The notes under the pieces are model-generated. The model saw only the letters and a program-made list of their open reading frames with translations, did no database searches and was not told the origin of the DNA. DNA of 62,161 bases, counting the filler, from Basidiobolus ranarum (taxonomy: Eukaryota): NCBI GenBank assembly GCA_040143965.1. It is 2 parts of 2 records of this genome, joined end to end, with 100 filler letters (N's around TTAATTAATTAA, not from the genome) between each part and the next. Parts side by side here need not be neighbours in the genome. Positions count along the whole stretch, not along the records: positions 1 to 31,068 come from JASJQH010000092.1; 1 more part is not named here. The stretch is one strand, 5' to 3'. The position numbers and the translations under genes are program-made. Positions 1-62,161 of the stretch are shown here, piece after piece (position 1 is the first letter of the stretch; every line of letters starts with the position of its first letter).

Positions 1-1054
1 GGTGGCGCAAAGTCAAAGTCTCTTGCTTCAGAAGAGGAGTTTCAGTATGTGGAGAAGTTGGGAAGAGAAGAGTTGAAGGCCGGTGTTGGCAGATGTGTGC
101 TAATTGATTCTGGACGTCGCGATTCGCTGTACTGTACGCACGAAGAAGGTACTGCTGAAAACAAAATGGTTTACCGATATACAAGCAACCAAAAAGCAAA
201 TCAAACAAAATACAGAAAATTCAAGAAGCTAAGAGAGAACTTTTTCAAGACAGACCTGTCATCACAGCTGAGCGATCCCTATCACATTTGAAAACTGCTA
301 ACAAAGACAAGTTTGCCGAGTATCTTCAAGAAAAAGCCAAAGTCGCTCCAGTCATGAGAGCATATTACTCAAATGAAGATCACCCTGCAGGAGAAGACCG
401 GCATACCAGCAATTTGTTACCTTCTAGAAAAATGAAGCTCTCAAGTTACACTAACCAACTACAATCAGACAAACTGCTTGCCAAGAATCTTCGAGAAAAG
501 TTTGGGAATGATACAATATTAATACTTGGTGACTGGTCTGCTGGAAATGAAAAGTATCATGAACCCAATGGAGGCGTTGGAATGAGGAAAATGTTAGCCA
601 AAGAAGGCTTCCAGCTATACCTCCTTGACGAGTTTAAAACTTCAAGTCTGTGTCCTACTTGCCAGAATGTTAAACTGGAAAAGTTCAAAAAGTCCGAAAT
701 CCTAGACCATACAAAAGAGAAAAGTATCCTATTGTATATCGTCACGGCCTTTTAAGGTAAATGCTCTTTATATGCAAGTAAAAAATTCAAACCTAATTTA
801 TGTTCAGGTGCAAAAACCAGCAGTGTTTAAAGGTTGTGGCCAATACTACTGAAGATTCTTCTTTTCGTCTTTGGAATCGTGACCTGGCTGTTACTTTGAA
901 CTTTAGACATATCCTTTTTAACTTGCGCTCAAATGGGGAAAGATCAGAACGTTTTTGCACATCGAAGGAACCTCTCTCCACCGGGTATAAAAGAAAGGGC
1001 ATTTCGTCAGCTAGCAGCAGTCGACCAACTCAAAAAGCAAATAATCCTGTGTGA
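1..1054 (+). mobile_element. Fanzor1 (eukaryotic TnpB/IS200-IS605-derived RuvC nuclease), 3' part, degenerate (frameshifted); 5' part lies outside the window
   Basis: Ordered Fanzor motifs across three ORFs: RuvC-I 'VLIDSGRRDSLYC' (consensus IDPGRRDLLYC), 'LILGDWS', RuvC-II plus zinc ribbon 'LLDEFKTSSLCPTC', 'NPRPY...HGLLR|CKNQQC' (joined by GT-AG intron 757-807), RuvC-III 'WNRDLAVTLNF'. Frameshifts near 241-270 and in the A-run at ~687-691. Confidence 0.9.
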
Positions 1055-1534
1055 TTATCGCTACACTAAACATTTGATACAGAGTAAGTTTCTTTTGCCA
1101 TGTGTCTGAGCTTATCTCCAATTTATTTTATGAAAATGTATAACTAATATAGATGGCTTATCAACAATAAATTACCATCACAGCGATAGAATACTCGAAA
1201 TTGCAAATACGAAGTGGTTACGGTACAGAATACAATTTCACTATAAGCGATTGTAAGCGCTAGACTAATGACGTTTCCCTAGAAGGAAAAGCTAAGATAC
1301 AAACAATATTTACAACTAAGGTCAATGGGCCATATAATCGGGTGGGATGGATGCTAAAAAGGGCTAGGGGTAGGGCTATGAACCGATGTAAGAACTGATA
1401 AATAAGTACTATACACGTATTGACATATAACTCTATATATATCTCATTACATTTGTGGATGTCTTTTCAAAATCTTATTCATAGTTTGGGTTACATTAGA
1501 GGGTAACCGTAGCTATAACTATTTCATTTGTGAC

Positions 1535-2761
1535 TTACATGGAATTTAACCAAGGATGTTTCTTAATTGTCTCTACGTCCAAGCGCTTCTTCGGGTTACT
1601 CTGAAGTATAGACCTAAGCAAATCCTTGGCCTCTTGCGAGATGGGTCTATCTTGAGGTAAACGATAATCAGCATTCGCTATTCTGTAGAAAAAGCTACGC
1701 CTTGATTGGCTTCCATCCATTGAGAACGGCAAAAATCCGACCAGCATTGTGTATAGAATCACCCCCAGTGACCACACATCGGCTTTGAATCCATTCGAAG
1801 GTTGGCCAAGGATTACTTCGGGTGCTGTATACTCTTCTGAACCGCAACGTGTAGTTAAGATAGAGTTATCACTGACGAACTCAGCCAGTCCCAAGTCGGT
1901 AATCTTGACAGAAATATTCCCATCCGATGATTCTTGTATTAATACATTCTCCAGTTTAAGATCCCGATGACAAATCCGTTTAGAATGAAGATATTCGACA
2001 GCTAATATCGATACAAGTTAAATGAGATTCTGAAGAATTTGCTTTCAAGCAACTTACCTTCTACCAACTGTCTGAATATCTTTTTGATTTTACTCTCACA
2101 AAATTCATTAGGATTATTGACCACATAGTCAAATAAATCTCCATCTTGCACAAACTCCAACACCAATACAAAATGAGTCTCCGTTTCAAATGATTCCAAA
2201 AATGCTACCACATTTGGATGCTCAAGTGCCTAAATACAGTTAAACATTAGAAGACGATCTTACTAAATTGGAGGATAGCCGTGGATTCTTTACCTTTAAC
2301 GTTTGAATTTCTCGTGATATAAGGTTTTTAATCGATTGATCACAATTCAATTCGACCATTTTCAAGGCAACCAAACCACCATACTTCCTAGTATCCTCAG
2401 CGAGAAACACTTTGGAAAAAGAACCAGAGCCTAAGGGCCTTAACACATTGTAAGCACCAACAGTGAAGAGCACACTTACGGTTACCGGTGTACAGATTGG
2501 CGTTAATAAAGTATGTTCCATCCCTTTGGGCAATGACGTGAGGCAAGTTAAATGTGAAGTGGAAGGCAGGTTTTCTAGTGGTCCAGTAGTTTCAGGTGAT
2601 ACTGAAACAGCTGGAGTTATAGCTAAACCTAAAGCAGAAGGAAGCCTAGATACAGAACCTGAGGAGTTGTTGTTTCTTTTATCCCAGTGCGCTTTATTCA
2701 TTACAGGCCCTGGGATCTCCTCAACTAAGGTAGTATCACATTTCTTTTGAAGTTCAGTCAT
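1535..2761 (-). CDS. Ser/Thr protein kinase, CAMK group (Prr1/Nnk1-like); 3 exons, about 2761-2294, 2229-2058, 2001-1535
   Basis: GSGSFSKV, VALK, HRDLKLEN, DLG (in place of DFG), TRCGSEEYTAPE, DVWSLGVILY; GT-AG introns. Start codon uncertain. Confidence 0.88.
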
Positions 2762-4556
2762 ACTAGAGTAGAGCTCGGGGGGCAATACCTTTGAGCAGAG
2801 CTACAAAAGATACCACTTTCAGGTAAAGTACGTAGTTGGTGGAGGAGTAACGATAGAAAAATAGCACCTCAAGGGATAAAGGAACGTCGGTTGGACTAAG
2901 TAAACTACGAAACGTAGCTTTGACCAACCCAGGAAAAACCCCAGTTACAAGTTAGGAAGATGTAGGTGATAACTAAAGAATGCAGAAAAATACAAAGTGC
3001 ACACACCAAATAATAAACGAACAATCAAGTGAACGTCTTGAGGGAAAGAGCCTTTGTCAATATAAAGGATAATCAGCGAATGAATGCGAGTGAATGCCAA
3101 TCTAGCGCCCCTTTTCTACGATGATTTCCACCCCTCAAATCACATTTGAATCGAAAATAGGATGAATATGGAATCAGAATGTATCATTTCAGTCAAGCAA
3201 ATCACTCATCAGATGGTGGTTACTAGCGGTCACATTTCCATGTATCCACAGTGTATCCGAATATTACAGGGAAAGTGAGGATTTAAAAGGCACATATATT
3301 CAACAAACAGCAGGGCCCAATGTAACTAGCCAAACAACCCCGTTAATGCTCTCCATCCTGACAATGGTCTCATATTACGTGACTGGTTGTTGCAACGATG
3401 GATGATTGGGTTAGACAAAGGCTAATCCGCGCAAGCACGGGCATATCCAATTAGTATTAAAATAAGCAAGGTTTAGGAAGCAGAAACCGACCCAATTACA
3501 CAAGACTGTAATCTGTTTAATTCGTTTGATTGATGAGTGTGGGTGATGCTACGTGCTTTGGCGTATCATCGCTGCAGGTGCAGTTACAGGCGCAGGCGAT
3601 AATTAGATACACCTCTATTGATGTTCATCCCTTCACACTACTACTTCATGCCGCTAAAGATGTTTCTGACACAACAATGCTAGTTTCATCCATGCAACCC
3701 ACAGAATCTGCCATCCAATCCGAATCAGTACTACGGATACAGTTTGAAACTGGCTTTGGCCCGGATTTATCCGCCATGCTATTCACTTCCCATGAAGCCA
3801 ACATCACATGAAGCAGCTAAATCTGGCAGAGAGTTTTCCCTTTTTGTAATGATGTTTACCATCTCGAGATCTCAAGTTTGAGCCTGATATGGGCCTGATA
3901 CTACTCCGATTTGTTCACCTTTCTCATCACACTGTGTACAATCCCATATACGGCTAAATACCAGGAGAAACCGTATCTCAGTTAGGAGCCTTGCATAATT
4001 GTAGAGTGTGCTCGATGCTGTAGAGTAAAAATATTGCTTCTTACGAAATATCAACAACAAATTTGTAATTACTACCAAAGCGTGCAGGGCGTTCATAGGA
4101 ACAGCAATGCGGTAACATCACATCTCAGCTGTTATTTTCTAACACATGACAACCGTAGTGGGACGATTTTAATCCAGTGTCGAGAAATATTGAGTAGTGT
4201 GCTATTCAGTCGTTTAAGAGTAGTATTTATTTAATAATGAACTTCTTTTTTACATTTAAACATTCTAAAGCTCAGGTCTAGTTCTGGTTTGAGTTGGTGA
4301 TGGTGTTGAATTGAAATCGATGGTCTTCATCTTCGAAAACAGTACATTGCATTTTCAAGAGGATAACTATGTACTATCGCACTAACTACTGGCGGAGTAA
4401 GAAGACTATATGAGTATTGTGCTCAGGTCAACTCTTCGAGTTTAACATAATTCTATATCGAGTAGAGGCCTTGAAATAATCCATAGAACAGAGTAAGGAT
4501 ATACGTGTGAAGAAAATCGAAAGCAGAGTGAGGGAACGGTATCTTTTGTGACAATT

Positions 4557-5174
4557 TTAAAGAAGCGCCGAGGCGAGGCACTGATTGACTACTTCAAGGA
4601 GATGGGAATTCTCCAAAGCTGCTGCTACTCTTTCTTTATCATTTAGCTGCTTGTTAACTAAGAGGACAAAGTCAGTTAAATTGCACAATTATCGCTTGGA
4701 AAAAAAGTGGTTTTGGTAAAATTTACCTGCAACTTCGCTTTGATGTGTTCCCTCTCGGACTGCGATGTCAATCTTAAAACGCTCGGGTAGGGAACGAAGT
4801 AATCTCACTCTAATGCATAAACCAATCAAGGTTGCCATAGAGCAATGTGGAATAGTAGGTGTGAACTCTACTAGGACCGTGTTACCAACATCGTCGATAT
4901 GTACATGATCTGGTTGAACGACATTTAATTGCTCTAAAGTCAGCGGATGTTCAGGATCGTTGATATTTCTGATCAATTCTGAGGAGAAAATTGGGAATTA
5001 GAAAGAAGATTTGACGCAACGTGTGAAGTTAAGAATTAAATTACCAAATATTTCCTGTTGATCAAATGGATCAGCAACCAACTCGTCTTCTTCTTCAGAA
5101 CGATAGACTCGCTCTATTTGAACTTTTGGAGTATGAATCACTGGGTTAGCGTTGATGAGATTAGGTCCTGGCAT
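4557..5174 (-). CDS. CIA2: Cytosolic Fe-S assembly component CIA2/MIP18 (FAM96) family; 3 exons
   Basis: 'INANP', '[19 protein letters not shown]', '[22 protein letters not shown]', '[17 protein letters not shown]'. Confidence 0.95.
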
Positions 5175-22130: not shown

Positions 22131-24659
22131 CTATTGGCCCTTTTGCTCTTTGGCTTTCTTTTCTTTTTTAGGTGCCTTGGTCTTCTTGGGCTGACTGTCA
22201 TCAGCCTTAGAGGCCATGCTTGTAGCCTTACCATCAGGAATACGGATCACCTTCAAAATTGAATCGTGAGAAGCAGCCTGATCAACGATATAGTATCCCT
22301 TGCGCTCCAATTGGATAATATCCCCAACCTTAAGTTCAGCGAGGTTGGCACTTCCCACAGCTAAAGATTTGAATTCAGTTACGGGTGTGACAACGTCCTT
22401 GATTTCGTCGTCCTCTTCGAGCTTCTTCTTGGTGATCAAATAATCATAATCCAATAATTCAACATCCACCAATTTACCAAACTCTTCTTGACCTTCGGCA
22501 GCCAACCAGGTGAGCTTCTTCTTGGTCTTCTTGAAATCTCCTTCCAAATGGAGTTCCATGGAGAGAGATTCGACTGGCTTACCCTCTTCAGTTTTGAAGT
22601 CCTTGGAGACGATAGCATTTCCCCAGTCCATCAAAGTGACCTCTTCACCAGCTTCAAGGGACTTGGCATCTTCCTGCTCGATGTAAATGGTGGCAGCGAA
22701 GACGGTCTTCTTGTTACCTACCTCGGGGTTCTTTTTATGCTTGGGCATTTCCTTGACATAAGGCTTCTCGGGGGCGCCGACAATGGTAACCTTGCACAAG
22801 TTGTCTTTAATGAGAGCAGTGTGACGAGGTGCGACGGGATCGATAACCTTCTTGTTCAAAGCCCACAATTTGTCCCATTCAAGCATGAGAACATTTTGGG
22901 AGGCACCTTGCATTAAGATATATTGTTTCAAGGCTTCAATGGTCATACCACGACGACGAATACCACGAACAGTAGGGAAACGAGGATCATCCCAACCAGT
23001 GACCAAACCTTGGTCAACAAACCATTGGAGCTTACGCTTAGAAAGCAAAGTGTAAACAAAGTTCATACGAGAGAAATCCCAGATGTGAACCTTTCTAACA
23101 CCAGTGGATTCAAGCATCCATTCGTATTGAGGGTTACGATCACGATACTCATTAGTTCTGAGAGCATGAGTAACACCTTCAAGAGAATCAACAATGGGGC
23201 AAGCAAAATCGTAGGTAGGATAAACCTTCCATTTATCTCCGACAAGATGGTGAGGAAGTAAGTTACAACGATAAATGACAGGATCACGAAGTGCCTTGTT
23301 CTTGTTATCGACTGAAATCTTGGCACGTAAGCAATTGGTTTGACCAAATTCAGTAGCTTTGGTCATTTCCTCGAAACGACGAAGATTCTCTTCAACAGAG
23401 TTGTCACGGTTCTTGGAGGCAACGCCGTGCATACGTTGATCACGCATAGTGGCTTGGTCGGTATCATCAGCATAGGCAAGACCCTTCTTGATGAGCTGGA
23501 GAGCATGTTCATAGAGTTGATCAAAGTAATCTGAAGTGTGGGTAACGTTATCGGAGTCAACACCAATCAATTTCAAATCTTCTTTGATACTGTTCTCGTA
23601 TTCAACCTTTTCCTTAGAGGGATTGGTGTCATCGAAACGAACAATCATCTTGCCCTTGTAGGTTTCAGCAAAATATTGATTCAACAGAGCAGCTTTAGCG
23701 TGACCGATATGAAGATAACCACTGGGCTCGGGAGGGAATCTGGTAACAACCTCACCAATCTTAGCACCCTTAAGATCAATGTCAAAGGATCCTTGATCTT
23801 TACGTTCCTGATATATAAATAACGCGATTAGATGCTTTGATGCACGCTAGATGGTGATCATATATAATGTTACCTTGACAGACTCAACTGATTGTTGAAG
23901 AGCAACAAAAGCTTCCTTAACACAATCAAGAGAGGCGATGAATTGGAACCAACGAAGCAAATGGACACCGACATCTTGGTTGGTCTTAAGGTGGCGATTG
24001 AAAACGGCATTAGCTATTAATAAGTTAAGTAAATACCAGAGTAGAATATGAATATGCGTTTAATACTTGAAAACATACCCTTCAAAGCACCAAAGATGGC
24101 AAAATCGGCAACAGACAATTTATAACCAGCAAAGAAACTACGTAAAGTCAAATAGTGATTTAATTCGCTGGTGATAGCGTTCAAAGACTTGAAGTCAGAA
24201 GCATAAATAGCTTGTGCTTGGGCAAGGGCTTTTTCAACCTAATAGCGGAAATCTTCAGGTCAGTAATTTAAAAGCAATCAGGATAGCAAGGAAACAATAC
24301 TAACATCAGCGGTAAATTCGCCCAAAGTGTCGGCGAATTTGGTAGACAATTGCTTGTAAAGGTCATCACCGACAAATGTCTCGCTATTCAATTCATACTC
24401 AAGAGTCAGTTTATTGAAGAGAGCAAAAATTTTAGATCAGTTAACAAACCTGCCAATAATAAGTTGGGCATTAGAGCCATCTTTTAAAGTAGCAACATCC
24501 TCGAATTTAGCCTCAACAGATTGACTTTTAAGGTAATAAGCCAAAGTAAGAGGAGCTAAAAAAACCTATTTTAGTATTGAAATAATAATGCTCCACAATT
24601 AACGCTTACTAACCGTATGCCAAAGGGCTAGCTTTATGAGCAATCACGATGGAAGCCAT
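22131..24659 (-). CDS. GUS1: Cytoplasmic glutamyl-tRNA synthetase (GST-like N-domain in short exons)
   Basis: 'VTRFPPEPSGYLHIGHAK' (HIGH), 'RFDDTNP', 'LSKRKL', 'GWDDPRFPTVRG', 'QLERKGYY'. Confidence 0.96.
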
Positions 24660-25270: not shown

Positions 25271-26233
25271 CTAATCTCCTCCACCTTTCTTACTTTTCTT
25301 ACCCCCACTACAACCAGTAATATTTTTGGTGGGATCTTCATTTCCAGAAATATTAGTTGTGTATGCTTTCAGACGTATAGGCGGGTTTAAGTCAAAGTTT
25401 CCCGTCTTCAAGATATCCATGAGATCACTTGTTCTATCAGCTGAGGCTGGCCATACTTTATCTTTGGTACAGCAGAGTACTATCCAGCGAGCTTTTATGA
25501 AGTCTTCAAGATATTGAGCTTCTGTCCGACCATTTGGGGCTCCAACCAGATTCAAGATAGTGAGCAGACTGACACCATCGTCTTCCTCCCACCCATGCTG
25601 AACTGCAGTATCATACATAATGGCTCTTCCAAGATTAGTTCGGACTCCCGCTGCATCACCTAGTTGAAGTCCCGGAATAAGATACAATTGATCAGCAACT
25701 TTATCTTGTACTGCTCTAAACTCTGGATCGGAGCAACTAACTTTAGACCAAGCCTCCATAAAGCCTCCAAGCTTATTAGTATTATCCCGGCCATTGGTAT
25801 CCCAATCTAGCTTACTGATGCGAGTCAGCTCAGGTATAAACTTGGCCAGCTCAGAGCCAGGCTTAAGTTTATCATATGCGACAATCACGGCCAACGCATC
25901 ATTTGTTCCGGTGGTGAAACCGACCAGACCACAAGTAAACCCACGACCATCACCAAGTTTTTCGCAAGTGGCATAACCGAAGGTGGTTGATCCGTATTCA
26001 AATACATTAGTTATCAATTTAGCCATGAGTTTAGGTTTAGGTTCCAAGTCTATTATGGGTAGTTGTTTAATTCTCTTCTCATAATTTCGATTGTTCTGCG
26101 GGTATTTACGAAGAAACTGACAATGTGGACCAGTTATTGCGTATTGACTCTTGCAGTAAGTGAATTTCTCCCCCACTGTATTTGTGATGAATAACATTAA
26201 GGTTGCTACTCCTATCGTAACGCACAAATACAT
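25271..26233 (-). CDS. Secreted GH46 chitosanase
   Basis: Signal peptide; GH46 signature 'NVFEYGST...LGDGRGFTCGLVGFTTGT' (catalytic Glu/Asp), 'FRAVQD', 'YDTAVQHG', 'YL..FI.AR'; intronless. Confidence 0.9.
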   Translation of the reverse strand: MYLCVTIGVATLMLFITNTVGEKFTYCKSQYAITGPHCQFLRKYPQNNRNYEKRIKQLPIIDLEPKPKLMAKLITNVFEYGSTTFGYATCEKLGDGRGFTCGLVGFTTGTNDALAVIVAYDKLKPGSELAKFIPELTRISKLDWDTNGRDNTNKLGGFMEAWSKVSCSDPEFRAVQDKVADQLYLIPGLQLGDAAGVRTNLGRAIMYDTAVQHGWEEDDGVSLLTILNLVGAPNGRTEAQYLEDFIKARWIVLCCTKDKVWPASADRTSDLMDILKTGNFDLNPPIRLKAYTTNISGNEDPTKNITGCSGGKKSKKGGGD

Positions 26234-26986
26234 TTTCTTGACAAAGAAGCAAACGGAATGGAATGCGAGTCGAATTGAACAGAATTGGACTGTCAACTTT
26301 TGCTACTTGGTTGTATTAAATACTTACCCAGTTCAAGCAATGGTTGACAGAACAAGGTCATTAAGATCAGAGGAAGAGATTGGACAAGAAATTCCAATTT
26401 ACTTCACTAACTCTCCCTATTTTCTTGACGAATCTTTGCTCTTTCCTGACTACAGACTCATTCTCTATACGGTACCCCATCCACGGAAAAATTAAGATGT
26501 GAATCTGAGGGGTGTGATGACATCGCTTAAGACCAAAGTTGCTACCGTTCTTAATGAAATGTCTTTTCAAAGGGACTGAACATTCATATAAAAAGCAGGG
26601 AACGGAGCTGAAACCGGTTCATTTTACATCTGGGTTGGAGCAGTAACCCAATATTGCGGTTCAAATGAGTAGTTCAAGAGCAAATAGTAGTAAAAGTCAT
26701 GTCAAATGGGGGATTCAACTGGGAGTTTATAACCGCATCACCAACAATCACCAACCAACCATTCTGTCAGATCTGCAACAAACCAACTATTCTGTCAGAT
26801 CATGGCAATGATTTTATTAACTAATTTGGTCATAAAAGTAAGGACTGTAAATTCCTAAAATGGGAATCATTTGTTGTTTTTGTTTTTTAAGGAGCTAGTT
26901 ATATCCACAAATCAAGTGAAATATTTACTTGAAGACTGTCATTTGGAATCCATATCTCCCTTTAGCTATAACTAAGCAATAACTCG

Positions 26987-31068: not shown

Positions 31069-31168
31069 NNNNNNNNNNNNNNNNNNNNNNNNNNNNNNNN
31101 NNNNNNNNNNNNTTAATTAATTAANNNNNNNNNNNNNNNNNNNNNNNNNNNNNNNNNNNNNNNNNNNN
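31069..31168. other. Artificial assembly spacer (44 N + TTAATTAATTAA + 44 N)
   Basis: Six-frame-stop linker centred in exactly 100 bp. Confidence 0.95.
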
Positions 31169-34486: not shown

Positions 34487-35160
34487 GCATCAACCAAATT
34501 AATGCATTGTATTTAGACTCATCTATCATCCAACCCTAAACAATAAAGCCCTCTTTCCATCTTACCACCTTCTAGAAAATACTATTAACCAATTCTTACT
34601 AATACACCGTTGCTCGATACGCGATAATTTGCTCAAAACTTTCCCATGGTTATGGCTATAGTTGATATTTTGTATGATGGTAGTAACCTAACCCTTGCCT
34701 CGTGATGACGTTAAGGTGATGAATTTAGGCTTAGATCACATGGTACGGATCTCACAGATGCAAAGATTTTCCCAATTCAATGTCTAAAAGCCGAATGAGA
34801 TATTGAATTCTCCGATATTTGTTTTTGTAAATCCAATCTAGTAATTATGCTGCAATATTTTCAAAACCACTAATTTAATAAGCATTTTAATCCCCATCAA
34901 TTCAAATTATCTATTTCTTACTACGGTTATCCGATTCTTCCACCAATTCGATATTTATATTCCTCTGACGTTTGCTCTACTTCTTCAAGCAACCTGGATT
35001 AGTACGAGTTTTTATTCAAGGTTGAGTTGATAGCCCACCACTTTTACCTTCTAAGCCATACTTCAATTCTATAGAAGGTAGAGGGTTATAGATAAAATAA
35101 CAACAGAACAACAAGTTACTCTACTCACTCTCTTACGAGGTCGTTTTAGAGTTCTTCTTT

Positions 35161-38100
35161 ATGACTACCGTGGCTAAAGGCTTCACGGCCATTTTTGAGG
35201 GTTTCTCAACTTTGGGCTTGAGGCGGGCCATACCCAAAGCAAACCCAAGCTTAATCTTGCGCCAGATCTCCACTAATGCTCGCCCCTTAACTCGTAGATT
35301 ACCTGACCCATCAGGCGTCAATACGACTGGACTGGTTTCTTGTCTCCCGAATACTTCGTTTGCTCTGGCCAGGCCCTCATTTCAAACCAATAGTTTGAAT
35401 TCTTTCACGCATATGCAAACTCAAAGCTTCTTCACTAGAGCCGCTGTTTTGAAAGCTAAAAAGTCTTCTGAAAAAGGTGAAGCTGGTGATAAAAAAACTA
35501 AACAAGACTCTTCCAACGGAGAAAGTGGTCCCAAGAATAACGACGGTAATAATGGCAACGGAAAAACTAACAACAACGGTAATAACAATAATGGTAAAGG
35601 TGATAACGGCAACAATGGCAATGGCAAAAGTGATAACGGTAACACTGGCAATGGTAAAGGTGGTAACGGAAACAACGGTGAAGACGGTAAAGGCAAAAAT
35701 CCCTTTGAAGCAATTCGTAAGGTCATAGATATTGCGGAAAATACCCTTCAAAAACCCTCCATCCCTGAAAATTACCCACAAGTTTTGGCATTACCTATCA
35801 CACGACGCCCACTATTTCCCGGTTTCTATAAGGCTGTTTCTATTAAGGACCCCAATGTTACCAATGCTATTCGTGAACTCATGAAACGTAATCAACCGTA
35901 TGTCGGAGCTTTTCTACTAAAGGATGATAACAAAGATGTTGACATAGTGAACGATATTTCTGAGATTCATAAAGTCGGTGTATTTGCTCAAATTACTAGT
36001 ATTTATCCTACAAATGGGCAAGATGGTGATTCTCTTACTGCCGTACTCTATCCACACAGACGTATCCGGGTAACCGAGCTCATACCTCCTAAAGCGGCTG
36101 ATGCTAGTATTCCTGCTATTGCAACAATTACCGAAGAAAATGGTGAAAAAGAGAACGATAGTACCTTGAAGACCGAACATTCCGATGCCCAATCTGAAAA
36201 CACTTTGAATGAGGCAGGTACCAAGGGTGAACTCGGGTCATTGGATACTGAGACTACCGACAATGGGGAGTTTTATGCCACCGCTTTCTTACGTGATCAT
36301 TCCGTCTCTTTAGCTAATGTTGACACTCTACATGATGAACCTTATAGCAAGAATAACCAGGTTGTTCGTGCTATCACCTCCGAAATTGTTGCCGTTTTCC
36401 AAGAACTTGCCACTCTCAATCCACTTTTCCGTGATCATATTGTGAACTTTTCCATGTCTCAAAACCCAGGAAACCTATTCGATGATCCAGCCAAAATCTC
36501 GGATTTTGCCGCGGCCGTCTCTGGCGGAGAATCTGATGAATTACAAAGTGTACTCGAATGTCTAACGGTTGAAGAACGTCTTCAAAAATCTTTGGAGGTT
36601 TTAAAGAAGGAGCTGATTAATGCACAACTTCAAAACAAAATTAGCAAGGAAGTCGATTCTAAAATTGCAAAGCGTCAACGTGAATACTATTTAATGGAAC
36701 AATTGAAAGGAATCAAAAAGGAACTTGGCATGGATTCTGATGGCAAGGACAAATTGGTTGAAAAGTTCAAAGAACGTGCATCCAAGTTATTAATGCCTGA
36801 AGCGGTCACTAAAGTTGTTGAAGAGGAATTGAACAAATTGGCCCATCTGGAACCTGCAGCCTCGGAATTTAACGTTACCAGAAACTATCTTGATTGGCTT
36901 ACATTAATTCCTTGGGGATTAAGAACCAGAGAAAATTATAACATCGAAAATGCTATGAAGGTTTTGGACGAAGATCACTACGGATTAAAGGATGTAAAAG
37001 AACGAATTCTGGAATTTATTGCTGTTGGCAAGCTTCGTGGCACCGTTGAGGGAAAGATCATTTGTCTTGCTGGACCACCAGGTGTAGGTAAAACTTCCAT
37101 CGGTAAGTCCATTGCCCGTGCGCTGAATCGTGAATTCTATCGATTCAGTGTAGGCGGATTGACCGATGTTGCCGAAGTTAAAGGACATAGACGTACGTAT
37201 GTAGGAGCAATGCCCGGAAAAGTTATTCAAGCTTTGAAAAAGGTTCAGACAGAAAATCCCTTGATTTTAATCGATGAAGTAGACAAGATCGGACGCGGAC
37301 ATCAGGGTGACCCATCTTCAGCCCTTCTAGAATTGTTAGACCCAGAGCAAAACTCATCTTTCTTGGATCATTATATGGATATACCGGTGGATCTTTCACG
37401 AGTATTATTTGTCTGCACGGCAAATGTTTTAGATACTATTCCCGGACCACTTCTTGATCGTATGGAAGTTATTCAACTGTCGGGCTATGTTGCAGATGAA
37501 AAGGTTGCTATCGCCGAGAAATACCTTGCTCCTAATGCCAAAGAAACCTCTGGCTTGGTTGATGCTCAAGTCAATTTGGACCCTACATGTATCGAAACAC
37601 TAATTCGCTCGTATTGCCGTGAAAGTGGCGTACGTAATCTTAAGAAGCATATTGAGAAAATCTACCGTAAAGCAGCTTTGAAGATCGTCAAAGAAATCGA
37701 TGAAAAGCATCCCGAATTGCAATCCACTCCTGAAGATGATAAAGCTGAAGCCGAAGATGGTGACAAGAGCCTGACGAAAGAAAAGCGCAAGCCTATGAAT
37801 GTGCCAAAGGATATTAAAATTGATATTACTTCCCAAAACTTGAAGGAATTTGTCGGACCTGCTGTGTTTACCAGTGATCGTTTGTATGATACTACACCTC
37901 CCGGTGTGGTTATGGGTTTGGCTTGGACTAGCATGGGTAAGTTATATTCCGTTTGTTTATCACCTCCTCAAATTAGTACTTAATTCCTTTGTATAGGTGG
38001 ATCTTCTCTTTATATTGAATCTGTTATCGACTCGGCTCTCACTGAGGATAGTAAGCCACACTTCTCCAGAACTGGACAATTGGGTGATGTGATGAAGGAG

Positions 38101-38565
38101 TCTTCTTCGATTGCTTACACTTACGCTAAGAGCTTGGTTGCTCGTCGATTTGAATCCAACAAGTTCTTTGAAAAAGCCTCGATCCATCTTCATGTACCCG
38201 AAGGAGCTACCCCTAAAGATGGACCATCCGCTGGTGTTACCATGGCTACAGCACTTCTCTCTCTCGCATTGAACAAGCCAATCTTACCTACAGTTGCTAT
38301 GACAGGTGAATTAACACTTACCGGGAAAGTATTGAAGATCGGCGGGTTGAAAGAAAAGACCATCGCTGCTAAACGAAGTGGCGTAACAAGAATTATTTTC
38401 CCCAAGGCCAATTTACCTGACTGGGAAGAGTTACCAGAGAATATTCGTGAGGGTATCGAAGGATATCCTGTTGATTGGTATGAAGAAATACCAACTCTGG
38501 TTGGTTTAGTTTCTGAGGAAGAATGGACAGGTACAAAATACCGCCGCCCTGATGTTGGACGCTGA
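35161..38565 (+). CDS. PIM1: Mitochondrial Lon protease (2 exons)
   Basis: '[10 protein letters not shown]', Walker A 'GPPGVGKTS', Walker B 'ILIDEVD', 'PKDGPSAG' (Ser) and 'GGLKEK' (Lys dyad); intron ~37938-37997. Confidence 0.97.
35535..35700 (+). repeat. Coding low-complexity Asn/Gly repeat within the Lon N-terminus
   Basis: [48 protein letters not shown]; ~10-aa unit ending NGK. Confidence 0.85.
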
Positions 38566-49771: not shown

Positions 49772-52337
49772 ATGGAGGAGAAAATCTTTACCCCACTTAT
49801 AGCTAGACCAGGTGTATGTAAAATTGGGAAGGTGGTCAAGATCGAGACAAATCACTGCCAATTTAGTTCACAAAGACCTATGGACATATATCATTATGAT
49901 TTATCCATCTTTCCAGAGATTAAGAATCCAACCGTGAATAGAACATTGTTTGAAGAAATTAAACGAAGGTATAAAGATACCTTATTTGGTAGATACACTC
50001 TGGTTTATGATTCTGGTAAGAATGTCTATTCAAATGGTCTTTTACCTTTTGGGGAGGCAACTAGCGTGGAGGTAACTCGCTTAAAATTCCATCCCAGAGT
50101 CCCATTGTTAACAAGTATTCAAGGAACAATTGGAGGCTACCTCAGTCAAGCCGGGTACTACCTATACGATCAAGTTAGTTAGAGTGGCCAAGATTCCAGT
50201 TCAAGCTCTTTTGGACTTTTTAAACGGTCGTTCGGGCCAGACATCGGCTAGTTTATCTTTTATCACCGCTATGGATGTACTCTTGAGGTATTATACTTCC
50301 ATGGATTATTTTATCTGGGGAAATTCCATTTTCAGACCAGGTAAGAGCCACTCTTTAGGTGGTGGATTGGAGGCTTGGCGTGGTATATATCAATCGGTTA
50401 AACCAACTAGAGGTAAGCTATTACTGAACATCAATTCCACCGCAACCGCCTTTTACACCCCTGGCCCGCTACTGGATAGCATCGTAAATGTGTTGGGACG
50501 TCGAAACCCACGAGAATTAAGGTCAGGATTCACTGGTGAAGAAAGATCACATCTATTAAAGTTCTTCAAAGGAGTGACCATTAAAACCACTCATCGAGGG
50601 GCCAAGAATTTCAAGTACAAATTCGAGGGATTCTCGGAGAAAGGCGCGGATCAGACGTTCTTTCCTTCGAAAGATAGCGAATTGGACATTGGTGTTTCAA
50701 CTTACTTCCATCAGACCTATAATATGAGACTGAATCATCCAACACTTCCATGTGTACTGGTCAAAAAGGGACAGGTTTGCTTACCGATCGAGGTTTGTGA
50801 AATTATCCCAGGTCACCGTTATAATGCGGCTAGATTAACCGAAGAGCATATCAGCAACATGATCAAATTTTCAGCCATGAGTCCCTCAAATCGAATCAAC
50901 GTAATCAACGACGGAATACGTACGTTAATCAACACCAACGGAAGTAACTTGGAAAAGTTCGGAGTGAGAGTAGACAATCGTATGATGAGAATCGAATCTA
51001 GAATCTTGGATCCACCAACATTACAATTCCATGAGAGTACTCCGAATCTTACTCCCGGTACAGGCATTTGGAATATGAATAATAAAAGACTTCATCGTAC
51101 AGTTCCACTGAAGGTTTGGTCCGTGGTGAGCTTTGCTTCTCGTGCCGAGCAGCACATCAAACCTTTCCTGTACGAGTTGATTGATACCGGAAGGCACATG
51201 GGTATGGCAGTGGAGATGGATACCCCTCCAATTCTCCAGGCATCACGCGACGAGACTATCGAAGAAATACTAAAGAAAGCCTGGTACAGAGCGCACCATC
51301 AATCCGAAGATATTCCCCAGATCATACTCTGCATTCTGCCGGTGCGTGACCCTAGATTGTATTCCGAAATCAAGCAGGTAAGTGAGACCTCAATTGGGGT
51401 AATCACGCAATGTGTAGTTGCTCGAAATGCATTGAACCCAGGTCGTGGTTATAAAATGTTTCTGTCTAATTTGTGGTTAAAGATCAATACAAAATTGGGA
51501 GGGATAAATGTTCGGCTTAGTCAGCAGTCTAATATCACTCCAAAAATGACAACCGATGTTCCTATGATCGTGGGTATCGATCTCTCTCATCCTAGCCCAT
51601 TTGATAAACTTTCCCCTACCACAGCGGCGGTTGTAGTCTCCATCGATTCAAGTTTCGCACGCTATGTTACTTCGTTTAGAGCACAAGAGGCAAGAAAAGA
51701 AACAGTAGCCGATATGGGATCCATGATGAAAGAGCTACTGCTGTTGTACAAACAACAATGCGGAAAATACCCCGAACAAATAATCATCTATAGAGATGGG
51801 ATTTCCGAAGGACAGTTCGAAGAGGTAAAGCTTCGTGAAATCCGACCAATTTACGAGTTATTCGAAAAAGAAAAGCAACCCTTGAAAGTGACATATATAG
51901 TAGCCAGAAAACGTCACCATACCTTATTCTTTCCTACCGAAAGAGCATTCACCGATAACTCAGGGAACTGCAAGCCAGGGACTCTAGTTGACACCACCAT
52001 AACCCACCCAAGTGAGTTCGACTTTTATCTACAATCTCACGCTGGAATACAAGGCACCTCTAGACCTTGCCATTATTACGTTATATATGACGATAATAAA
52101 TTTACCGCCGAGGAGTTACAAACGTTGACATTCAAACTTTGTTTCATTTATTGCCGTTCAACTCGTTCCACTTCAATCCCTGCCCCACAATACTACGCTC
52201 ACTTGGCCGCAGGACGCGCACAGCTTCACTTCCGAAGTGGTTCCTGGAACGACCCGCGCAGTGAGGATGGCCAAGGAACCCAAGAAACTTACAGAGGAGT
52301 CAAGCACGAATTGAAGACCCATATGTTTTACGTTTGA
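49772..52337 (+). CDS. ago: Argonaute (eukaryotic AGO clade), ~837 aa; exons 49772-50071 and 50124-52337
   Basis: N 'ARPG...GK...ETNH', 'YHYD', 'VYDSGKNVYS'; L1 'LGGGLEAWRGIYQSVKP'; PAZ 'LPIEVCEIIPG'; MID 'YSEIK','TQC','LKINTKLGG'; PIWI 'GIDLSH','RKE','YRDG','QSH..IQGTSRPCHY','YAHLAA'. Confidence 0.97.
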
Positions 52338-60053: not shown

Positions 60054-60315
60054 ATTAAAATTATTTATGTGGCTCTTTGTTAGTCCGTCATCGATAGTAC
60101 TTCACCTGAATTTGTTATGGATCTATTATTGGATGTCTAGTGTTAGTGTTCTGCTGTTATCATGGTAGACTGTATATTATTTCAGCCAGCTTGAAAGTTT
60201 GCAAGATTAACCGACTAAACGTTACTTCCAGTTGTACGTATATAAGCCCATGTTACACCTTACTTGTTGCTTATCCATTTCTTGATATTTCAACATTGAC
60301 TGCTACTTACACATT

Positions 60316-61116
60316 ATGCCAACTGTACTCAGTGTTTTTGCCGCTTCTTGCATTGTATTCCAAACAGTATTAGCTGCTCCAGTTCATAACCTACCAGGTT
60401 TTGCAAATGCAGTAGCACAAACTACTTACAAAGACAGATCTTGTGGACAACAAACTGGGCCTTGCGATATACAACCCCGATATCAGGCAACTCCTCAAGT
60501 GAGAGAGTACAGTTATGCCCAACCACAAGCAATGCCAGTGTATCAACAGAGTGAAGAACAGCCAGCAGACGAGGAGTCTACTCCTGATCAAGGCCAAATG
60601 GATCAGACTCCAGCTGAAGATACTCAAGGTGCAGAGCAGCCAGCTGCTGATGAGCCCACTCCTGATCAAGGCCAAATGGAGCAGGCTCCAGCTGAAGATG
60701 ATCAAAGTTCAGAACAGCCAACAGAAGATGAATCCTCTCCCGATCAAGGTCAAATGGAACAGGCTCCCGCTGAAGATGAACAATCTCAGTCTGAGGACCA
60801 AACTCAAGAAGCTCCCTCCTATACCACTACTCCTGCTTCATGGAATGTTGACTTGAGTCAACTCCAGCCCAAACAAGCGCTACTTGATGAAGTGAAAGGC
60901 CACGCATCCCAAGGTAGTCAAGCACTGTCCGATGCGAACCAGTTTGACCAAGCCCAACTAGTTGACCAAACTGTGTACCAACCATCTCAGCCACCTCAAC
61001 CCCAGATCATCATTCCCCAGTGGCCAATGCACCGACCCAGAAAAGCCTACAAGAAGTACAAGAAATTTGCTCACCGTTCTTTCAAGATCAGATATTTCAG
61101 CGGTAACAGACACTAA
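60316..61116 (+). CDS. Secreted Gln/Glu/Asp-rich repeat protein, copy 1
   Basis: Signal peptide, Cys pair, three 26-aa repeats, basic C-terminal tail. Confidence 0.8.
   Translation: MPTVLSVFAASCIVFQTVLAAPVHNLPGFANAVAQTTYKDRSCGQQTGPCDIQPRYQATPQVREYSYAQPQAMPVYQQSEEQPADEESTPDQGQMDQTPAEDTQGAEQPAADEPTPDQGQMEQAPAEDDQSSEQPTEDESSPDQGQMEQAPAEDEQSQSEDQTQEAPSYTTTPASWNVDLSQLQPKQALLDEVKGHASQGSQALSDANQFDQAQLVDQTVYQPSQPPQPQIIIPQWPMHRPRKAYKKYKKFAHRSFKIRYFSGNRH
60559..60792 (+). repeat. 78-bp coding tandem repeat x3
   Basis: QPADEESTPDQGQMDQTPAEDTQGAE / QPAADEPTPDQGQMEQAPAEDDQSSE / QPTEDESSPDQGQMEQAPAEDEQSQS. Confidence 0.9.
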
Positions 61117-61814
61117 ACCTTCGTCCTTTTCACTCACTATTCTCATAACGGCTTGCAATTATGCATATAAACTTGAATCTTCAATAAAGTGTTCCCAATA
61201 ATAACACTAACAAGCCATGTTAAAATATCGATGGCGTTAAACTAACTAGGAAGTGATGGACTAGAAAATAGCAGTTACCACGTTCAGGGTAGGTGATCAT
61301 GCTTGACAAATGCTACTATAAAAGGGAAAAATTCTTCGTTATTATTGCTACTTCCAAAGTACGTAGTACAACCCCTCGGAGTATAATCTTTACCACATGA
61401 AGAGTACAAATTGCTACTAGTTATAGTAGTTATACTCGTACAAGTAGATAGAGCATTTTTTCATATGGCTATGTATTCAATGAAAATAAACTGATGATTG
61501 GGTGAGCAACAATTCTTAAAGCTGCAAATATATGCTGATAAAAAAGTCAGCCATAATTTTTATTTTAACATGCCTGTTCTGACAGACCAATTGAATAACC
61601 AATACATACCTTGAGCCGTTTGGTAAATACAATCCATTTTAATAGTCTACTTGATAGCGTATTATGCGCCTATTAGAAAAAGTTTCTTTGGTAGATTATT
61701 TAAGCACTTCAGATAGCACTTGTTGGTTTGGTATTACTTGTATAAAAGTGCTTAGTCCCCGTTAGTCGATATTTATTCTGTTCTTAGCTTATCAACAATA
61801 ACCATTCAGTAAGC

Positions 61815-62161
61815 ATGCAAACTATTCTACTCACTTTGGTTTCATCCTGCGTCGTGATTCAAGGAGCATTGGCCGTTCCAGTTCATAACCTACCAGGTTT
61901 TGCAAATGCAGTAGCACAAACTACTTACAAAGATAGATCTTGTGGACAGCAGACTGGGACTTGCGATATACAACCACAATATCAGGCGACTCCTCAAGTG
62001 AGAGAGTACAGTTATGCCCAACCACAAGCAATGTCAGTGTATGAACAGAATGAAGAACAGCCAGCAGACGAGGAGTCTACTCTTGATCAAGGCCAAATGA
62101 AACAGGCTCCAGCTGAAGATGATCAAAGTTCAGAACAACCAACAGAGGATGAGTCCACTCC
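61815..62161 (+). CDS. Secreted repeat protein, copy 2 (runs off the window end)
   Basis: MQTILLTLVSSCVVIQGALAVPVHNLPGFANAVAQTTYKDRSCGQQTG...; near-identical DNA to the region from ~60378 onward. Confidence 0.85.
   Translation, partial: MQTILLTLVSSCVVIQGALAVPVHNLPGFANAVAQTTYKDRSCGQQTGTCDIQPQYQATPQVREYSYAQPQAMSVYEQNEEQPADEESTLDQGQMKQAPAEDDQSSEQPTEDEST

Follow-up and report, generated by a model that had tools for sequence, protein, structure and literature searches.

Fanzor1 proteins are eukaryotic relatives of TnpB and Cas12, and compact variants of these nucleases are being sought as genome editors. One such protein is encoded at the start, on the plus strand, of a stretch of 62,161 nucleotides (nt) of DNA from Basidiobolus ranarum, the whole of which is called the window here, where positions 1-1054 code for the C-terminal ~334 residues of a Fanzor1 nuclease, spread over three reading frames and interrupted by a 51-nt intron. 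Among the described systems the best solved match is PpFz1 of Parasitella parasitica (PDB 9cf0-9cf3), which presents the same order of RuvC-I, GxWS, the LxDEFxTSS glutamate, CxxC...CxxxxC and WNRD (PMC11423790). In PpFz1 a ~107-residue FRI insertion that binds cyclophilin has been described (PMC11423790), and the Fanzor1 branch of the window lacks it: a profile of six full-length relatives skips residues 986-1093 of 9cf0, with profile positions 331-340 spanning this ~107-residue stretch. The window copy also differs from PpFz1 in that it is broken, reads DSG instead of DPG at RuvC-I, and has no recognisable guide-RNA region.

The second solved protein, SpuFz1 of Spizellomyces punctatus (PDB 8gkh; PMC10432273), has the same catalytic layout and an identical GDWS motif but is more distant (E 5.2e-11); the aspartate of the family's NRD motif aligns with the RD of SpuFz1, and D606 mutants are among those assayed there (PMC11423790). 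In Mucorales, Fanzor1 families have been known since 2013 (PMC3627910), and the ROr, MCi and PBl families, compared here by their published description, fall in the same clade as the window copy, with Mucorales as hosts as opposed to the Basidiobolus-like host here. For some of these families that paper describes non-autonomous elements made up of terminal inverted repeats (TIRs) and the Fanzor gene only, an organisation also seen in a Rhizopus-like metagenome contig, L001, whose 135-nt repeats can be set beside SpuFz1, whereas the window copy has no detectable right end. Bacterial TnpB (IS200/IS605, IS607) has the same RuvC-zinc ribbon core and RNA-guided logic, and the window copy gives a weak match to PF07282; unlike TnpB, the copy has its glutamate at the alternative, Fanzor-typical position (by the criterion of PMC10711439), a spliceosomal intron and a eukaryotic host.

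It can be held with good confidence that positions 1-1054 are the rear half of a dead Fanzor1 copy of the Rhizopus-type, FRI-less branch, which was transferred horizontally and then decayed. Because it is half a gene, broken and with no recognisable guide RNA, it adds no usable enzyme, and the expectation of a new programmable nuclease in the sequence-only reading, an earlier annotation of this DNA, went too far, since the family stands close to the Parasitella Fanzor1, which has been solved and assayed, and Mucorales Fanzor1 families were already described in PMC3627910. Its value is evolutionary: it places a Fanzor1 family in Basidiobolus and offers a measurable case, with a synonymous divergence (dS) of ~0.58 and an intron identical at 45/51 bases, of an RNA-guided-nuclease transposon common to Mucorales and a distant fungal lineage. 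In the literature searched, no paper linking Fanzor with Basidiobolus was found, and what PMC10711439 reports on Fanzor, horizontal transfer and fungi concerns prokaryote-to-eukaryote and viral routes. The present case supports a horizontal spread of Fanzor among eukaryotes, which so far has mostly been argued for viruses and for prokaryote-to-eukaryote steps (as presented in PMC10711439 and PMC3627910).

Fanzor1 identity of the copy

Numbered as in the maltose-binding protein (MBP) fusion, residues 870-937 of 9cf0, the solved P. parasitica chain, are matched by the first piece of the copy (E 1.4e-11), residues 928-985 and 1092-1185 by the second piece of 149 in-frame residues (E 3.9e-33), residues 1186-1206 by a 22-residue frame-2 piece (E 0.1 alone), and residues 1204-1255 by the last exon (E 1.4e-6). 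In the search with the last exon, WD40 proteins ranked above 9cf0 only because they repeat a 17-residue chance match many times. In these alignments the four pieces are collinear on one solved Fanzor1 chain, far beyond chance, and 8gkh was matched by the first piece (E 5.7e-5) and by the second at the value given above. The profile of six full-length relatives matched 9cf0 (E 7.3e-151) and 8gkh (E 2.5e-62), which were its only PDB matches at E<=0.001. The family is large, with 1181 representative clusters found at E<=1e-3, of which 250 reach <=1e-10 and 10 reach <=1e-30. In the Pfam library the three open reading frames (ORFs) gave only a sub-threshold match to PF07282, Cas12f1-like_TNB (E 0.013; 16.1 bits vs a cut-off of 26.3), no NCBIfam model matched them, and four full-length relatives matched no Pfam family at E<=0.01; the copy would be missed by family libraries alone.

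Fingerprints of Fanzor proteins have been described as "near exclusively DPG" at RuvC-I together with a glutamate six residues before the first CxxC (PMC10711439). The glutamate stands at this alternative RuvC-II position in the window copy (E-FKTSSL-CPTC), aligned with LIDEFRTSS of 9cf0 and LLDEYKTSS of 8gkh. At RuvC-I the aspartate (codon 106-108) aligns with the D of MDPGRRD in 9cf0 and of IDPNKRD in 8gkh, and the DPG fingerprint itself is missing, the window copy reading DSG. DPG is kept in the B. ranarum relatives P0154 and P0155 and in most Rhizopus relatives, and the serine therefore arose in the window copy; a Rhizopus delemar fragment (P0133) also reads DSG, so that the change from proline to serine occurred at least two times in the family. 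The motif given for Fanzor and TnpB in PMC3627910, D-X(125,275)-[TS][TS]-X-X-C4 zinc finger-X(5,50)-RD, is found in order and spacing, with ~177 residues from the aspartate to TS, CPTC...CKNQQC, and 17 residues to RD (counted by hand).

Judged from its sequence, the window copy is a Fanzor1, in which the three acidic catalytic residues (Asp-Glu-Asp), the zinc ribbon and GDWS are all retained. The sequence-only reading had described a Fanzor1 locus spread over three ORFs, with its motifs in order once two frame shifts and one intron are allowed for, with all three catalytic acidic residues kept and with DSG in place of DPG; each of these points is borne out by the coordinates below, and the identity itself by the matches to the two solved Fanzor1 proteins.

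Coding layout, frame shifts and intron

The three ORFs run from stop to stop over 1-291 (frame 1), 159-755 (frame 3) and 797-1054 (frame 2), and the motifs follow along the window in the order IDSG, GDWS, LDEF, CPTC, CKNQQC, NRD and stop. The features are as follows, with L001 and L003 denoting related contigs from the metagenome collections and P0154 a fragmentary B. ranarum protein.

1-255 (+), Fanzor1 coding segment A in frame 1, truncated at the window start; matches 9cf0 870-937 (E 1.4e-11), and B. ranarum P0154 through nt 255
103-114 (+), RuvC-I, IDSG; catalytic Asp codon 106-108
241-257 (+), first frame shift, frame 1 to frame 3; at 256-257 by the closest relative P0154, the T5 run at 241-245 carrying an extra codon compared with the relatives
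258-689 (+), coding segment B, frame 3; 9cf0 E 3.9e-33, 8gkh E 5.2e-11
528-539 (+), GDWS, read in segment B
624-635 (+), RuvC-II, LDEF; Glu codon 630-632, six residues before the first Cys
651-662 (+), first zinc-ribbon half, CPTC, in segment B
684-691 (+), second frame shift, from frame 3 into frame 2, through the loss of a base somewhere within TTC-A5
692-756 (+), coding segment C in frame 2, completing exon 1 (VRNPRPY...HGLL); frame-2 match to 9cf0
757-807 (+), spliceosomal intron, 51 nt, GTAAAT..TTCAG, phase 2; site common to L001 and L003
808-1054 (+), exon 2, frame 2, with a basic C-terminal tail; E 1.4e-6 to 9cf0
809-826 (+), second zinc-ribbon half, CKNQQC, in exon 2
875-883 (+), RuvC-III, NRD; Asp codon 881-883
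1052-1054 (+), stop codon, in exon 2
1055-1089 (+), last stretch homologous to the Rhizopus-like element, ending in GTAAGT; 50-nt match, 74%, E 2.7e-5, with 26/32 aligned bases identical
1117-1135 (+), possible right-TIR remnant, weak; 17/19 bases vs the L001 TIR, E 0.075, and E 0.2 in a second search

At the first shift, the match of P0154 stays in frame 1 up to and including KTD (nt 255) and is taken up again in frame 3 at 258, which puts a missing base at 256-257. At the second shift, L001 has A6 where the window has A5, and another B. ranarum relative, P0147, reads through in one frame. The intron at 757-807 is of the GT..AG type, has a length that is a multiple of three, and lies at HGLLR|CKNQQC, a site that is identical in L001 and L003; on these features it is predicted to be a real intron.

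Only about the rear half of the gene lies within the window, because the window starts inside the gene, and the front half lies beyond the window start. The start corresponds to about residue 205 of the 544-residue model P0001, an R. delemar protein; this model is short at its N terminus, the gene in L001 extends to ~700 residues, and whole related proteins measure 684 to about 700 residues. The N-terminal half, where a Fanzor1 has its REC and WED domains, is carried by the relatives L001 and L002, the latter being a further metagenome contig.

Relatives in protein and metagenome collections

Among 860 candidates, of which 12 matched, the closest full-length proteins are hypothetical proteins of R. 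delemar and R. arrhizus (60-64% by BLASTP), followed by R. microsporus (56%) and Helicostylum (51%). Shorter proteins gave 23 matches among 69 candidates, three of which are B. ranarum fragments, and these include the closest of all relatives (82.5% and 79.1% identity). All three are themselves damaged: in P0147 the RuvC-II Glu is replaced by Gln and a zinc Cys by Phe, and the NRD stretch is missing; P0155 has lost an internal segment; and P0154 is truncated. No B. meristosporus match was found among the protein relatives in a search that depends on shared words. Within the window, neither tblastn with 12 relatives nor blastn of 1-1600 found a second copy or a related repeat, and the short repeats in 1-1700 look like chance.

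Metagenome contigs were scanned with the six full-length relatives, which gave the related contigs L001-L003. The protein encoded in L001 is 92% identical to R. delemar P0001. A frame change at a T run close to the N terminus (2417-2440 of L001; INVDFF / KEVFLSL) interrupts the otherwise intact Fanzor1 gene there, and this copy may also be broken or mis-assembled. Upstream frames in L001, at 1-906 (+) and 1318-1729 (-), resemble a tyrosine-recombinase-type and a retroelement-type protein by eye only, which suggests a transposon-rich neighbourhood. The metagenome contig L002 carries at 1078-3129 (+) an intact, intron-less Fanzor1 ORF of 684 residues, 42% identical to P0001, in which a DPN-type RuvC-I, DEY..TS, CPDC/CTNQNC and NRD are kept; judged by its predicted protein, it has more promise as a natural candidate enzyme than the window copy.

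Probable horizontal transfer between Mucorales and Basidiobolus

The genome that carries the copy looks Basidiobolus-like; neither this affinity nor the signs of transfer had been noticed in the sequence-only reading. The glutamyl-tRNA synthetase (GluRS) ORF at 22134-23846 (-) is 93% identical to that of B. meristosporus and 70-72% identical to those of seven Mucorales, and the GluRS of R. arrhizus shares 81-86% identity with most other Mucorales, 74% with Phycomyces and only 72% with the window. The tree of the element conflicts with these host relationships, as the Basidiobolus clade is nested in Mucorales copies. In a maximum-likelihood tree of 34 rows and 330 of 690 columns, the Basidiobolus clade (support 100/96) is sister to R. 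delemar, R. arrhizus and R. stolonifer (87/79), Phycomyces joins them (95/91), and this group lies inside a clade (98/91) whose named members are all Mucorales, with Coemansia and Syncephalis outside. Forcing the 17 Mucorales rows together against the 9 others (Basidiobolus, Coemansia, Syncephalis) costs 33.66 log-likelihood units and is rejected by the approximately unbiased (AU) test (p-AU 0.003). The identities agree with this placement: the window copy is 69.3% identical to that of R. delemar, which in turn is only 63.1% identical to R. microsporus, 58.6% to Cokeromyces, 57.0% to Helicostylum and 53.3% to Phycomyces.

At the DNA level, comparison of the window copy with L001 over 325 codons gave 80.6% nucleotide identity and a third-position identity of 0.73, with a proportion of synonymous differences (pS) of 0.40, a dS of 0.58 (bootstrap 0.44-0.77) and a ratio of non-synonymous to synonymous divergence (dN/dS) of 0.26. 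Deep Fanzor pairs taken as controls saturate (pS 0.81 for the window and L002, 0.86 for L001 and L002). The likeness extends beyond the coding DNA, to the intron, in which 45/51 aligned bases agree with the 59-nt intron of L001, and to the first 35 nt past the stop, in which 26/32 do. DNA of introns and flanks this similar would not be expected to have persisted since the phyla split. Horizontal transposon transfer of the Fanzor1 element is considered fairly likely. In its fuller form the account probably runs that an intron-bearing Rhizopus-type Fanzor1 transposon moved between Mucorales and Basidiobolus, across phyla and long after their split, and multiplied in Basidiobolus, where less decayed or intact FRI-less copies may survive.

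Several points tell against transfer or weaken the case for it. The affinity of the host is drawn from one housekeeping gene, GluRS, together with the B. ranarum relatives, and the copy shows no foreign composition, with a GC content of 41.2% vs a mean of 42.6% and a third-position GC (GC3) of 0.37 vs 0.38. The AU test constrained a group that had been chosen only after inspection of the tree, and the tree, the identities and the dN/dS used a first placement of shift 1 (1-240, 243-689) by which five codons are misread, an effect expected to be negligible. Saturation of dS in host genes is presumed from the 28% amino-acid divergence of GluRS and from general expectation. The Mucorales also carry several Fanzor1 families, 4 in Rhizopus oryzae and 10 in Mucor circinelloides according to Table 1 of PMC3627910, so that the topology alone could reflect old paralogs.

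This last point, with the ordinary composition, is what would favour vertical inheritance from an ancestor that Basidiobolus shared with Mucorales, or differential sorting of an old paralog among lineages, with no transfer at all. The placement of Basidiobolus among the early fungi is debated, which would also leave room for this account. It is judged unlikely, because it has to accommodate a dS of only 0.58 and the third-position, intron and 3'-flank identities to L001 in a family whose deep pairs are saturated at pS 0.81-0.86, the fact that the R. delemar copy is closer to the window copy than to that of R. microsporus, and the rejection of a Mucorales-only clade. Contamination by Mucorales DNA, or a chimeric join at the end of a contig, would fit the position of the copy at the very edge of the window and the Rhizopus origin of its closest full-length relatives, but it is very improbable: DNA identity to the Rhizopus-like copy is only 81%, the closest relatives of all are the B. 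ranarum fragments, which form a joint clade with the window copy at 100/96, and the GC and GC3 values agree with those of the host genes. Horizontal transfer followed by decay is the account that is kept here.

Decay or assembly error

The window copy is very probably a real pseudogene. Of 100 columns that do not vary among 10 Mucorales-type relatives, 14 are changed in it, and at 7 of those 14 columns B. ranarum copies retain the conserved residue. When each relative was left out in turn, 1-8 of 78-105 columns deviated, a comparison that favours relatives with close sisters. As judged by the two shifts, DSG, the changed conserved positions and the lack of a recognisable right end or guide scaffold past 1089, the copy is predicted to be unable to act any more. 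The sequence-only reading had called it recently decayed; decay is upheld, and a recent date is borne out only in part, since the lack of in-frame stops fits it but 14 of 100 otherwise invariant positions have changed.

A different explanation would be that the gene is intact in the organism and that both shifts are errors of sequencing or assembly. Such an error is possible at either shift, and the second, at TTC-A5, touches an A5 run and is a typical error site; there is, moreover, no in-frame stop in ~1 kb apart from the two shifts, and a dN/dS of 0.26 against L001 implies that most of the divergence accumulated under selection. The first shift tells otherwise, as it lies at 256-257, outside any long homopolymer; an account in which both shifts are homopolymer errors was rejected, since P0154 places the first one outside the T5 run. 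The other genes of the window are intact, which makes an assembly error unlikely: the 16 other ORFs of >=250 amino acids (aa), 20,868 nt in all (20.9 kb), contain 68 homopolymer runs of >=5 bases and no shift, and six of the ten longest ORFs hold full-length Pfam domains (Lon, Argonaute, GluRS, M16 peptidase, alpha/beta hydrolase and GH46). The GluRS gene can be aligned with its ortholog across residues 16-715 of 738, its frames being separated by nothing but a GT..AG intron, and the neighbouring kinase gene at 1535-2800 (-), with its stop codon at 1535-1537, can be read, by eye, through two GT..AG introns. Both shift sites are read through in the B. ranarum relatives P0147 and P0154. With the changed conserved positions (14/100; DPG to DSG), the loss of element-tail homology past 1089 and the damage in all three B. 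ranarum relatives also counted, an intact gene is quite unlikely, and a true pseudogene is the explanation retained.

The transposon, its ends and the guide RNA

The gene in L001 lies between 135-nt TIRs at 1721-1855 and 4446-4580, which are 89% complementary, and the sequence of L003 is the same as that of L001 until a few bases from the element end, where the two diverge. The element in L001 is therefore 2.86 kb long, with a single Fanzor1 gene and no transposase; no clear target duplication, including one of 9 bp, was found around it. In 40-nt windows the window copy and L001 are 70-95% identical nearly throughout the coding sequence and intron, with ~0.6 at two indel sites, and 35-57% identical past 1089, where local alignment of 1055-1600 to the L001 tail scored 48 vs a shuffle mean of 47. 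The best match to the L001 TIR in the whole window, at 1117-1135 (17/19 bases, E 0.075), is not significant alone and is suggestive at most of a TIR remnant.

With regard to a guide RNA, Rfam gave only a chance match of the window copy to a long non-coding RNA (E 0.78), and the fold of 1030-1160 was no better than that of shuffles (z -0.54). The L001 tail folds with z -2.58, from which no relation to the window is drawn. The 35 nt after the stop were considered as the start of a guide RNA or as an intron in the 3' untranslated region, and both were rejected, since an identity of 26/32 is no more conserved than that of the intron (45/51) or of the coding DNA (81%); these bases simply mark the end of homology. 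Pairing of the post-stop motif with a partner further downstream to form a stem was likewise rejected (66 matches vs 60 expected by chance). The window copy either lost its right end and guide scaffold or has a different, unrecognised one.

For an intact member of the family, a mode of action can be drawn from the solved relatives. By homology it would be an omega-RNA-guided RuvC endonuclease, in which RNA from the right end of the transposon would be bound through surfaces of RuvC, TNB and WED, as described for SpuFz1 and PpFz1 (PMC10432273; PMC11423790). The complex would then find DNA that matches the guide next to a short target-adjacent motif (TAM), and the Asp-Glu-Asp site would cut it. 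Most likely such an element reached, or left, the Basidiobolus lineage by horizontal transfer, after which copies would have spread in Basidiobolus and then decayed, with the window copy as a presumable relic.

Other features of the window

Ordinary host genes in the window include those for GluRS (22134-24556, -), Lon protease (35101-38562, +) and an Argonaute (50112-52334, +; Piwi domain E 3.4e-90), the last of which, a gene of RNA silencing, lies 49 kb from the dead Fanzor1 copy along the joined stretch, with no link implied. Two runs of 44 N at 31069-31112 and 31125-31168 fall inside minus-strand ORFs and are masked stretches or assembly gaps, coinciding with the filler between the joined parts.

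A 343-aa ORF at 25274-26302 (-) contains a full-length GH46 (chitosanase) domain (E 4.1e-45; profile positions 2-210 of 210). GH46 is mainly bacterial and viral, and this ORF may be a bacterial-type gene in a fungal genome. Near the end of the window, the neighbouring ORFs at 60286-61113 (+) and 61788-62159 (+) have very similar signal-peptide-like N termini and a common motif, PVHNLPGFA, and are probably tandem paralogs of a secreted protein.

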